Below the pieces are notes generated by a model. That model worked only from the letters and a program-made list of their open reading frames with translations, did no database searches and was not told where the DNA came from. Of a stretch of DNA of 64,000 nt, positions 14,632 to 16,514 are shown in pieces. The stretch is from positions 22,762-86,761 of IMG/VR virus record IMGVR_UViG_3300028586_000001. The stretch is one strand, 5' to 3'. Position 1 is the first letter of the stretch, and each line of letters starts with the position of its first letter. A program made the position numbers and the translations under genes. The DNA comes from a virus. Its lineage: Duplodnaviria; Caudoviricetes.

Positions 14632-15633
14632 ATGACCACTTCCAACGCCACCGCTCAAGACACCAAACCAGCCAAGAACTTCCGCGAATTCGAGCGTGAG
14701 AACGAGGATGTCAAAAAGGGCGAGCACATCAAAGTCCCCCTGAACCGCATCACGATCAAGAAGGGCTTCAACCCCCGTGATCTGAGCAAGCCCGAGACCC
14801 AGGCCAAGATCACCCTGCTGCAAGCAGCCTACGAGGCCGGTGATTTCGTCCCACTGCCAATCGTTCGTATGGCGCTGGACGGTGAAAGCGCCGAGATCGT
14901 CGACGGCGAGTGCCGCTACACGGCAGCGTGCCTCGCCAATGCTGCGATGACGGCGCGTGGCGAGACCGGCATCGAGTGGTTCGAGGCGATCCGCTTCAGT
15001 GGCACCGAAGCCGAAGCGCGCTCCCTGTCGTTCAAGGCCAACCAGGGCGAGCACCTGACTCCGCTGGAACAGGCTGACCACACGATCTGGTATCGGGAAC
15101 AGGGTTACACCCGCGAAGACATCGCCACCTTCCTGGGCAAGTCGATCGGTTGGATCGACCGCCTGATCGTTATCTCGAAACTGCCTGCGAAGATCAAGAA
15201 GCTGGTGGCTGATGATCGTATCGCGGCAGAAGAAGCGGTCAAGTACGTGAAGAAGCACGGCGATAAAGCCTACGAAGAAATCATGGCCAGCCTGGACAAG
15301 TCGAAGGGCAAGGTCACGCCGAAACACGCTGCGGAACCGACCGGCGACGATGACGGCGATGCTGGTGATGACGGCGCTGCGGCCGAGCTGGCCGCTGCTG
15401 AAAAGAAGGCCGAGAAAACTGCCGAGAAGGCTGAGCAGAAGCGCCTCCTCAAGCAGCTCGAAACGGCCAAGGAGCTGGCCTTCGCCCTCCCGGACAAGAT
15501 CAAGAAGCCACGCAACCTCGCCGACGACCAGGTCTACCCGCTGGAACTGACCGGCGCGGCCATCAAGCACCTGATCGCACTCCAGGACAAGTTCACACCT
15601 GAGATCGAGGCAGCGCTGCGTGGTGAAGCATGA
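14632..15633 (+). CDS. ParB/Spo0J-like protein (ParB N-domain + HTH + low-complexity tail)
   Basis: GFNPR, EIVDGECR, N..EHLTPLEQA and HTH GYTREDIATFLGKSIGWI. Confidence 0.8.
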   Translation: MTTSNATAQDTKPAKNFREFERENEDVKKGEHIKVPLNRITIKKGFNPRDLSKPETQAKITLLQAAYEAGDFVPLPIVRMALDGESAEIVDGECRYTAACLANAAMTARGETGIEWFEAIRFSGTEAEARSLSFKANQGEHLTPLEQADHTIWYREQGYTREDIATFLGKSIGWIDRLIVISKLPAKIKKLVADDRIAAEEAVKYVKKHGDKAYEEIMASLDKSKGKVTPKHAAEPTGDDDGDAGDDGAAAELAAAEKKAEKTAEKAEQKRLLKQLETAKELAFALPDKIKKPRNLADDQVYPLELTGAAIKHLIALQDKFTPEIEAALRGEA

Positions 15634-16514
15634 AACAGTGCTACACCCCGAAGAACTTCCGCACCGACTCCTTGCGGCTGATCGTCACCGTCAACTCCAT
15701 CGTTGACGACTACCAGAATCAGGGCTTCCGGTTGACGGTTCGCCAGTTGTACTACCAGCTCGTGGCCCGCGACATCATCCCCAACACGATCCAGGAATAC
15801 AAGCGTGTCGCTGGCATCATCAACGACGGCAAGCTGGCCGGTCTCATCGACTGGGAAGCCATCGAAGACCGGACCCGCGAGTTCGTCCAGCAGACTCGTT
15901 GGCGTGATGGTGCGCAAATCCTGCGCGCTGCGGTCGACAACTTCCACATGGACATGTGGTCGGGCCAGGAGCACCGGGTGTTCGTGGTCGTGGAGAAGGA
16001 AGCGTTGGTCGGTGTGCTGGAGCCAACCTGCCGGAAGTGGGATATCCCGCTGCTGGCAGCGCGGGGTTACCCGAGTGGCACCGTGCTGCGCGAGTTCGTC
16101 CAGCGCGATATCATCCCGGCCCAGTGCGAAGGCAAGGAGCCGATCATCCTGCACCTGGGGGATCATGACCCGAGCGGCATCGACATGTCCCGTGACCTCA
16201 CCGAACGGCTGGCATTGTTCAGCGGCCAGGACGTGGAGCTGAAGCGGATCGCCTTGACGATGGATCAGGTCAACGAGCAGCGTCCTCCGAAGAACCCGGC
16301 CAAGTCCACTGACTCCCGCTTCAACGAGTACAAGAAAATCTACGGCTCCAGTAGCTGGGAACTGGACGCGCTGTCCCCGGCGTACCTTGCCGGACTGCTT
16401 GAAGGTCACATCGGAGACTACATCGACCACGGTGCGTGGAATGAAGTCGCTGACCAGATCGAAGACATCAAGAGCCGCATCACCGAAACCGCGAAAGGGT
16501 TTGCAAATGACTGA
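15630..16514 (+). CDS. Spo11/topoisomerase VI subunit A-like (Mini-A-like) protein
   Basis: TVRQLYY (5Y-CAP tyrosine motif), VVVEKEAL, ARGYPS and LGDHDPSG (Toprim motifs). Confidence 0.75.
   Translation: MKQCYTPKNFRTDSLRLIVTVNSIVDDYQNQGFRLTVRQLYYQLVARDIIPNTIQEYKRVAGIINDGKLAGLIDWEAIEDRTREFVQQTRWRDGAQILRAAVDNFHMDMWSGQEHRVFVVVEKEALVGVLEPTCRKWDIPLLAARGYPSGTVLREFVQRDIIPAQCEGKEPIILHLGDHDPSGIDMSRDLTERLALFSGQDVELKRIALTMDQVNEQRPPKNPAKSTDSRFNEYKKIYGSSSWELDALSPAYLAGLLEGHIGDYIDHGAWNEVADQIEDIKSRITETAKGFAND

Follow-up and report, generated by a model that had tools for sequence, protein, structure and literature searches.

The overlapping ParB-like and Topo Mini-A genes described here belong to two known families and are unremarkable as a pair, tightly packed in a phage replication operon. 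They are probably accessory genes that act separately in an early operon for DNA replication in an uncultured phage. The window that we analysed is a stretch of 64,000 nucleotides from the genome of this phage, which is 86,761 bp long (~87 kb), ends in direct terminal repeats and counts as complete in IMG/VR. The pair is not conserved across Mini-A-encoding elements, and a dedicated ParB/Mini-A machine made of two parts is unlikely.

Results

Identity of the Mini-A gene

The second gene of the pair (15630..16514, + strand) has an ATG start and codes for 294 aa. Judged from its sequence, it is a clear member of the Topo Mini-A family (Takahashi et al. 2020, PMC7671362), an assignment based on PHROG 6247, motifs and fold. 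The preliminary description had called it Mini-A or Top6A-like, and this identity holds with the catalytic motifs intact. All the motifs then listed are in the 294-aa product: the 5Y-CAP motif TVRQLYY at residues 36-42, with the Tyr41/Tyr42 codons at 15750-15755, and the Toprim motifs EK (E122-K123), RGYPS (R145-G-Y-P-S149) and DHDPSG (D178-H-D-P-S-G183). The architecture is a truncated 5Y-CAP winged helix (R38/Y41/Y42), in which R38-Q-L-Y41-Y42 forms the R-x-x-[YF]-Y motif, followed by the Toprim domain (E122, D178, D180) and by the SWELDAL box (S242-W-E-L-D-A-L248), an instance of the xWELDAL or T2BI box described as telling Mini-A from Topo VI and Topo VIII (PMC7671362). In an alignment of 27 Mini-A sequences, R38, Q39, Y42, E122, K123, G146, D178-G183, W243, E244, D246 and A247 are invariant.

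The protein matches PHROG 6247, annotated as 'DNA topoisomerase', with an E value of 3.3e-121, and is 50-59% identical to gene products of the Chiviruses BP12C and SPN19, the Pseudomonas phages NP1 and PaMx25 and the Xylella phage Sano; for the NP1, PaMx25, BP12C and SPN19 proteins the identity is 52-59% across 99% of the length. No Pfam family was matched at E<=1, Top6A families included, nothing relevant was matched in NCBIfam, a profile search against PDB sequences found neither Top6A nor Spo11, and there was no match to PADLOC models, that for Wadjet JetD included. The structure model (pLDDT 87.7) has a first helix at residues 12-30, then the tyrosine helix at 37-46, and its best fold match is Top6A 1d3y (Foldseek E 3e-5, probability 1.0, 289 columns). 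The Toprim part (residues 88-264) gave VIA Z scores of 11.7 with Top6A 1d3y, 10.9 with MksG 8b7f, 10.4 with JetD 7til and 8.8 with Spo11 8uru.

The viral Mini-A family is very widespread, with over 7,000 clusters of proteins matched at E<=1e-60, and its lack of a B subunit was published earlier (PMC7671362); we found no report in the literature of a biochemical activity for any Mini-A. The protein studied here shares with described members such as NP1 gp49, PaMx25 and Salmonella Chivirus BP12C gp28 its length (~300 aa), RxxYY, the Toprim E and DxDxxG, xWELDAL, a viral origin and the absence of a B subunit. It differs in gene context: directly before its gene, and overlapping it, is an orphan ParB-like gene, a neighbour not in PMC7671362 and absent in the cultured members checked. 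Top6A and Spo11 (PDB 1d3y, 2zbk, 9o0g, 8uru) are the best structural matches, with the CAP-helix Tyr and the Toprim E and DxD in common, but our Mini-A is about 100 residues shorter and lacks the Top6B-binding N-terminal part of the CAP domain. Moreover, the GHKL partner that is obligate in those enzymes (Top6B/TOPOVIBL) has no equivalent in the phage. The window had already been noted to contain no GHKL gene, and a search for a B subunit elsewhere gave the same result, since PF02518, PF13589 and PF09239 were empty at E<=10 across the whole 86,761-bp genome. The Wadjet JetD/MksG nuclease (7til, 8b7f) also has a CAP-plus-Toprim fold and is activated by a separate DNA-loading complex, the analogy on which the preliminary proposal drew; however, the likeness is at the level of the fold only, Mini-A retains the tyrosine motif, and it is found in a phage and not in a defence island.

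Identity of the ParB-like gene

The first gene (14632..15633, + strand; ATG start, 333 aa) codes for an orphan ParB/KorB/Noc-like protein. Its ParB-like identity, proposed earlier, is borne out by a match to PHROG 1033 'ParB-like partition protein' (E 1.9e-35) and by a KorB/ParB fold. Pfam KorB scored 23.9 bits (cut-off 22.3), HTH_ParB 22.3 bits, 0.3 under its cut-off of 22.6, and TIGR00180 28.2 bits, under its cut-off of 58.45. The N-terminal part is a ParB/Srx-type NTP-binding domain (FNPR 46-49, G92-E-C-R95-Y-T-A, N137), followed by an HTH DNA-binding domain at ~140-225, an acidic low-confidence linker at 235-248 and, last, a helical domain at the C terminus, which is kept among orthologues. 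In Foldseek, the structure model (pLDDT 85.9) matched best to KorB 8qa9 (E 6e-10, TM 0.72, 210 columns, 23% identity), then to Spo0J, Noc and ParB-CTPgammaS, and the profile matched Spo0J at 2.4e-12, with Spo0J GERRYRA aligned to GECRYTA.

Against the reference motifs for nucleotide binding (box I QPR, box II GERRxRA, box III ENxQR), the protein has N47-P-R49, G92-E93-C-R95-Y-T-A and N137 at the aligned positions. Box II keeps its Glu and second Arg, and the Asn is retained as well, but the first and third Arg of box II are replaced by Cys and Thr in 23/23 orthologues, which are 35-70% identical. As read from sequence, the arginine patch is thus degenerate, with two of three arginines lost.

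KorB of plasmid RK2 belongs to the ParB family and acts as a CTP-dependent sliding clamp that represses over long range (PMC11790492), and other orphan proteins with the ParB-CTPase fold are found on mobile elements (PMC12704722). Our protein resembles RK2 KorB (8qa9) in being encoded by a mobile element, in having it as its best fold match and in passing the Pfam KorB cut-off. It differs in its patch (GECRYTA instead of GERRxRA), in a C-terminal domain that is helical and unlike that of KorB, and in that no ParA/IncC, KorA or TrbA partner was identified for it. It also differs from the ParB of ParABS systems, given its score under the TIGR00180 cut-off and a genome without a ParA ATPase (PF13614 and PF01656 were empty in the phage genome). 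A partition role was rejected because the genome lacks ParA.

Searches of cultured phages by megablast with the ParB/Mini-A pair and by tblastn with two ParB orthologues (P0010 and P0016) gave no match, nor did a search of the genome contigs with the ParB profile. A metagenome search with ParB gave a single distant ParB locus (L117), which is without Mini-A.

Operon setting

A perfect hairpin with a T run after it, resembling an intrinsic terminator, was located by a terminator scan at 14327..14350 on the + strand and is the upstream edge of the transcription unit. After it come an ORF at 14376-14603, ParB, Mini-A, an ORFan, a dUTPase gene and a helicase gene. The same scan showed no other + strand terminator-like site as far as 18700, so the stretch from ParB to the helicase places many genes on one predicted transcript. 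Mini-A lies in a replication module beside genes for a dUTPase, an SNF2-type helicase, a primase and a split PolA.

Both genes are on the + strand and, as described earlier, share an ATGA stop/start overlap, read in the sequence at 15630..15633. This arrangement is common in the phage genome, where a 4-nt overlap occurs in 13/63 same-strand neighbouring gene pairs (in a crude gene set), and it is not distinctive; it probably reflects dense operon packing and not a dedicated system of two proteins.

The end of Mini-A is in turn overlapped by 8 nt (ATGACTGA) by the ORFan (16507..16920, + strand, 137 aa), whose 3' part overlaps the start of a conserved gene at 16862-17125 by 59 nt. The GC content of the ORFan per codon position (0.60/0.43/0.75) is like that of real genes. 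It had no Pfam, PHROG or PADLOC matches and no homologues among 5.8 billion proteins, and it is missing from the closest relative of the phage (L116), which has a different ORF in the slot occupied here by Mini-A and the ORFan. We considered the ORFan as a possible 'Mini-B' and rejected it, because a gene with homologues nowhere could not be a family-wide partner of Mini-A.

The palindrome CTACA-N5-TGTAG

The palindrome CTACA-N5-TGTAG is real: the window contains 2 copies, at 6159 and 14300, against 0.01 expected, and 2 further copies lie upstream in the genome, giving four exact copies in total. The copy at 14300..14314 (CTACACTGGATGTAG) overlaps a sigma-70-like -10 element (TACACT). In the closest relative there are 2 copies only (1 for the control), neither of them near its ParB gene. 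The palindrome was rejected as a parS site, since its copies are found at intergenic spots that are promoter-like or flanked by terminators, and since the motif near ParB is not kept in this relative; nothing links the palindrome to ParB.

Distribution of the pair

The preliminary description had proposed that the two genes form a module for DNA cleavage or decatenation licensed by ParB. This proposal is not sustained by their distribution: lack of conservation of the pair had been named in advance as an outcome that would refute it, and this is the outcome seen. The closest complete relative (L116/G084) is syntenic, with 69% identity in ParB, 76% in the helicase and 79% in the primase, and contains no Mini-A at E<=1 in the whole genome; its ParB retains the conserved C-terminal domain although Mini-A is absent. 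Among the 68 Mini-A virus genomes in our survey that are near complete (each >=90%), a PHROG-1033 ParB is present in 9 and absent from 59 (87%), and in the wider set of records with a strong match it was found in 12/136. ParB is also absent from BP12C, NP1 and Sano, which are cultured phages with Mini-A. ParB is therefore not a general partner of Mini-A.

The neighbourhood survey that had been suggested for the pair gave results on both sides. It covered 172 distinct Mini-A loci, which represent 141 lineages at 70% identity, and neighbours within 3 kb. Helicases, ThyX, a Sak4-like annealase, DNA ligase and ParB recur as neighbours, each in no more than about 9% of lineages, and in NP1-like lineages the Sak4-like annealase directly follows Mini-A, with a Cas4-type exonuclease nearby. 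A ParB-like gene lies within 3 kb of Mini-A in about nine lineages that have no other synteny in common, and among the 14 Mini-A records with a ParB-like gene it is this close in 10, nearer than a random position would be.

ParB abuts Mini-A in 4/141 lineages, scattered across the Mini-A tree: by a 4-nt overlap in the window, a 1-nt gap in L035, an 8-nt overlap in L214, and in L151 with ParB 20 nt downstream. The other three abutting loci have no further genes in common with the window, and a search of IMG/VR with the L035 Mini-A found no close relatives of that lineage. Overall, three lineages have ParB upstream of Mini-A and seven have it downstream, at distances from 20 nt to 2.8 kb. Orthologues of both genes were located on contigs of 4559, 9436, 18249, 84584, 84919 and 87253 bp, paired by equal bp values only, which suggests that the pair is kept inside the phage's own clade, on at least six contigs. 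Other contigs of the clade gave a match to a single gene of the pair, those of 87041, 87462 and 87810 bp to ParB and those of 86751, 85130 and 87439 bp to Mini-A.

Discussion

Under the reading of two accessory genes that act separately, Mini-A should, by homology and from its conserved residues, form a dimer like that of Top6A/Spo11 and should cut DNA with Mg2+ bound by the Toprim acidic residues E122, D178 and D180. Tyr42 should make a 5'-phosphotyrosyl link, with no ATPase subunit required, and the substrate would most likely be phage replication or recombination intermediates. The gene itself would be an optional one in a swappable slot. The orphan KorB/ParB/Noc-type protein probably acts alone on phage DNA, as a clamp or regulator switched by nucleotide. 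Cleavage by a dimer, the DNA that it acts on and the switching of ParB are inferred, whereas the data themselves show what the two proteins are, how they fold and which motifs they have, that GHKL and ParA genes are absent, that the two genes are predicted to share a transcript, and how the pair is distributed.

Mini-A is a relative of the enzyme that starts meiotic recombination, and a real partner would make its role testable. In a two-part machine, the ParB-like protein would load at a specific site, close a nucleotide-operated gate and recruit or license Mini-A to cut or pass DNA, on the model of the ATP-operated Top6B gate or of the SMC complex that activates JetD, with decatenation, a programmed break or an attack on foreign DNA as possible ends. 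Such a machine could explain why the two genes abut, overlapping or no more than 20 nt apart, in four scattered lineages of Mini-A, why about nine lineages have them within 3 kb of each other, and why they are apparently retained together on at least six contigs of the clade. It would also suit a Mini-A that comes without any ATPase partner and a ParB fold that is a nucleotide-gated clamp in the relatives KorB, ParB and Noc (PMC11790492).

There is, in addition, precedent for a ParB-fold NTPase that governs a DNA-cutting domain, in the GmrSD/BrxU/SspE-type enzymes, where a DUF262 ParB-like NTPase is fused to a DUF1524 nuclease (PMC4619093), and ParB-HNH fusions are on record (PMC12704722). Those enzymes, however, are single-chain host-defence proteins with an HNH-type nuclease, whereas in the window each of the two proteins has its own gene, no fused form was found, and their association is facultative. 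The closest relative, which retains ParB and its conserved C-terminal domain with no Mini-A at all, and the 87% of near-complete Mini-A genomes without such a ParB argue against the two-part machine, as do a gene order and a distance that vary among lineages and a GERRxR patch that has lost two of its three arginines. Membership of both genes in a DNA-metabolism module by itself predicts proximity, and four abutting cases out of ten nearby are, by a rough estimate, about what a module of ten genes would give. A large survey of the ParB-CTPase fold (PMC12704722) makes no mention of Toprim or topoisomerase partners. On this evidence we regard the two-part machine as unlikely.

It is improbable, too, that Mini-A is a replication or recombination initiator that makes a site-specific nick or double-strand break, with the ParB-like protein only indirectly linked to it, its HTH doing no more than marking or organising the region of the origin. 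Such a role has been proposed for the Mini-A of archaeal skuldviruses (preprint 10.1101/2021.07.29.453957) and would be in keeping with the position of the gene within the replication module and with the annealase and exonuclease genes that accompany it in NP1-like lineages. However, the complete close relative replicates without Mini-A, which means that Mini-A cannot be an essential initiator in the clade of this phage, no origin or target site was identified, and the CTACA-N5-TGTAG copy near ParB is not kept in the relative.

More doubtful again is a restricted form of partnership, in which, in a minority of phages that includes this one, a nucleotide-gated orphan clamp of the ParB/KorB fold serves Mini-A as the 'B subunit' that it lacks: the clamp would load at a site, close when NTP binds, and position or license the Mini-A dimer for breaking or passing DNA. 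If this were true, ParB/Mini-A would correspond to Top6B-Top6A and JetABC-JetD, with CTP or another NTP as the nucleotide required, and the repeated abutting in scattered lineages would reflect selection beyond a common genome module. Two accessory genes acting separately is the reading that we prefer, and ParB, as one of the few neighbours of Mini-A that recur independently, is a cheap candidate for future Mini-A biochemistry.

The least probable explanation is that Mini-A works as a hydrolytic nuclease similar to MksG and JetD, directed at host or competitor DNA and with a non-catalytic tyrosine, since the Toprim part resembles MksG and JetD about as well as Top6A but PADLOC, with its Wadjet JetD model, gave zero matches, and the invariance of R38 and Y42 in 27 diverse Mini-As argues for tyrosine chemistry.

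ParB-like and Mini-A genes of the early operon

Our results are best explained if the ParB-like gene and the Topo Mini-A gene are accessory genes for DNA handling, both of known kinds, packed in a long early operon. Mini-A would probably work as a dimer in need of no other subunit, cleaving DNA by means of its tyrosine and Mg2+, with replication or recombination intermediates as its probable substrate, and ParB would probably act alone as a nucleotide-switched DNA-binding regulator or organiser.

The 86,761-bp genome, of which the window covers 22762-86761, has direct terminal repeats and is rated complete in IMG/VR. 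The ParB-like gene (14632-15633, + strand, 333 aa) and the Mini-A gene (15630-16514, + strand, 294 aa) share the ATGA reported in the preliminary description, but exactly 4-nt overlaps are frequent in this genome (13/63 same-strand adjacent pairs in a crude gene set), so the overlap is no mark of special pairing. A terminator-like hairpin (14327-14350) precedes a small ORF (14376-14603), and since no further + strand terminator-like site was found up to 18700, a single transcript is predicted to carry both genes, an ORFan (16507-16920), a small conserved ORF, a dUTPase fusion, an SNF2-type helicase, a primase and polymerase genes. The ORFan codes for 137 aa, shares 8 nt with Mini-A at one end and 59 nt with the next, conserved gene (16862-17125) at the other, and has no homologue among 5.8 billion proteins; its GC by codon position (0.60/0.43/0.75) is a gene-like pattern.

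The Mini-A product has no Pfam match, matched the DNA topoisomerase family PHROG 6247 at 3.3e-121 and shares 50-59% identity, across the full length, with proteins of Chivirus BP12C/SPN19, Pseudomonas phages NP1/PaMx25/JG054 and Xylella phages Sano/Salvo. Mini-A proteins are described as having ~300 aa, RxxY/FY, Toprim E and DxDxxG motifs, an xWELDAL box, viral carriage and no B subunit (Takahashi et al., PMC7671362), and the gene shows all of these features. The catalytic-tyrosine and Toprim motifs noticed initially were confirmed (R38-Q-L-Y41-Y42, E122, D178-H-D-P-S-G183), an S-W-E-L-D-A-L box lies at 242-248, and within these motifs R38, Q39, Y42, E122, D178-G183, W243, E244, D246 and A247 are invariant in a 27-sequence Mini-A alignment spanning 36-64% identity. 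The absence of a GHKL B subunit also held for the whole genome, where PF02518, PF13589 and PF09239 had no match at E<=10; all three matched control genomes. The best match of the AlphaFold model (pLDDT 87.7) was Top6A 1d3y (Foldseek E 3e-5, prob 1.0, 289 columns; VIA Z 11.7), with further VIA Z scores of 10.9 for MksG, 10.1-10.9 for Top6 holoenzyme chains, 10.4 for JetD and 8.8 for Spo11. Sequence profiles did not reach Top6A or Spo11 among PDB sequences, so that, strictly speaking, the protein is a Mini-A rather than a Topo VI A subunit. None of the papers located contains biochemistry of a Mini-A, and the sole functional idea published is that of a replication initiator in archaeal skuldviruses (10.1101/2021.07.29.453957).

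The ParB-like assignment of the first gene was corroborated by PHROG 1033, 'ParB-like partition protein' (1.9e-35), and by Pfam KorB (23.9 bits, above cut-off); HTH_ParB scored 22.3 bits, 0.3 below cut-off, and TIGR00180 28 bits, short of its cut-off of 58. Its model (pLDDT 85.9) best matched RK2 KorB 8qa9 (E 6e-10, TM 0.72, rmsd 3.2 over 210 columns), with Spo0J, Noc and ParBs bound to CTP or CDP next. The profile built from 23 orthologues matched Spo0J at 2.4e-12, with box II GERRYRA aligned to G92-E-C-R95-Y-T-A; the catalytic Glu, second Arg and box III Asn remain, but all 23 have other residues in place of two of the three box II arginines. The ParB fold binds CTP, ATP or GTP, and orphan versions are plentiful on mobile elements (PMC12704722). 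Nucleotide binding by the product is plausible, and we infer that the protein may be a 'CTP clamp'. No ParA was found in the genome, so the gene is not part of a partition system.

Conservation of the gene pair

At least 573 Mini-A loci are present in IMG/VR, and the 228 fetched comprise 172 distinct sequences, which form 141 lineages when grouped at 70% identity. Clustering of all ORFs <=3 kb from Mini-A revealed no dominant neighbour family across these lineages; the commonest were a helicase (13 lineages), ThyX (9), a Sak4-like annealase (8) and ParB (7 by BLAST clustering, about 9 by HMM), and a second helicase, DNA ligase and serine recombinase were also frequent. A PHROG 1033 search of 136 whole Mini-A records gave 12 strong matches and none in the cultured phages BP12C, NP1 and Sano. 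The preliminary description had proposed a ParB-licensed DNA cleavage or decatenation module, but the pair is not conserved, as ParB occurs in only 9/68 records at least 90% complete (0/10 + 6/33 + 3/25) and the closest complete relative lacks Mini-A.

In NP1/PaMx25-like lineages a Sak4-like single-strand annealing protein (PHROG 124) directly follows Mini-A (<=20 nt or overlapping; L066, L068, L069, L072, L073, L076, L079 and phage NP1, L002:4891-5616), and the genes for ThyX and an ATP-dependent DNA ligase lie close by on the upstream side. The annealing protein abuts Mini-A more often than any other neighbour seen, but does so only in related lineages.

That ParB licenses Mini-A is a minority possibility that we consider unlikely, and the findings that leave room for it concern gene position and co-inheritance. 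ParB-HTH genes abut Mini-A in three lineages besides the window, ending 1 nt ahead of it (L035), overlapping it by 8 nt (L214; ParB truncated at the contig end, Pfam HTH_ParB 9e-7) or starting 20 nt downstream (L151). In L100, L219, L063, L078/L039 and L083 ParB is a same-strand gene 0.7-2.8 kb downstream, and in L087, L095, L158 and L205 it is distant. Apart from the pair, no gene of these loci is shared with the window. On the Mini-A tree the 10 rows labelled 'ParB within 3 kb' take 8 changes and the 4 labelled 'abutting' take 4, so the arrangements are independent, and ParB is one of the few Mini-A neighbours that recur independently. ParB is <=3 kb from Mini-A in 10 of the 14 Mini-A records carrying it, window included, above the random-position expectation; both genes are members of a DNA-metabolism module, and by rough estimate rather than formal test, 4 abutting among 10 nearby cases is about the yield of a ten-gene module. 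Own-clade orthologues of Mini-A (70-74% identical) and of ParB (44-64%) have longest contigs of equal size six times (4559, 9436, 18249, 84584, 84919 and 87253 bp; matched on size), which suggests that the pair is inherited within this clade.

The 23 ParB orthologues are 35-70% identical to that of the window, several on 84-87 kb contigs, and the sole one examined as DNA with its full genome is L116, in genome G084 (86,481 bp, terminal repeats, complete). The locus and the window are syntenic (DnaJ-like 48%, ParB 69%, dUTPase 46%, helicase 76% and primase 79% identity), but Mini-A is missing from all of G084 at E<=1. The slot after ParB is variable, holding Mini-A and the ORFan in the window and, in G084, an unrelated 180-aa ORF (L116 6026-6568) without a Pfam match, whose start lies 4 nt ahead of the ParB stop. 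ParB thus persists, conserved C-terminal domain and all, in a genome lacking Mini-A, and this clade can dispense with Mini-A, which is also absent at a more distant ParB locus (L117, 42% identical). The strong form of licensing, in which ParB would stand in for the missing B subunit of Mini-A, is slightly less probable still, and we retain the reading of two accessory genes sharing an operon.

Other features of the genome

A 15-nt palindrome family, CTACAC-N3-GTGTAG, is present in the genome. Exact CTACA-N5-TGTAG occurs 4 times, at window positions 6159-6173 and 14300-14314 (2 against 0.01 expected) and genome positions 999 and 8398, with variants at window 2366, 9831, 17126, 42347 and 49349. 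Copies and variants (1-2 mismatches) are intergenic, 8-25 nt ahead of start codons or beside terminator hairpins, and the copy at 14300 overlaps a sigma-70-like -10 element (TACACT). The palindrome resembles a phage signal of the promoter or hairpin type; the genome of the closest relative contains only 2 copies, at other places.

The gene at 11886-12686 codes for an N-terminal J domain, with an HPD-ending motif seen in translation; it is 48% identical in the closest relative and matches only PHROG families of unknown function. At the right genome end, a very long - strand ORF (57688-63966; 2,092 aa from the first ATG) is still open at the window end. The genome has no close cultured relative, the best match of its helicase (18632-20065) being 27% identical, in ~83-kb Vibrio phages, and its ParB and Mini-A orthologues lie on uncultured 84-87 kb contigs, which points to an undescribed phage group.
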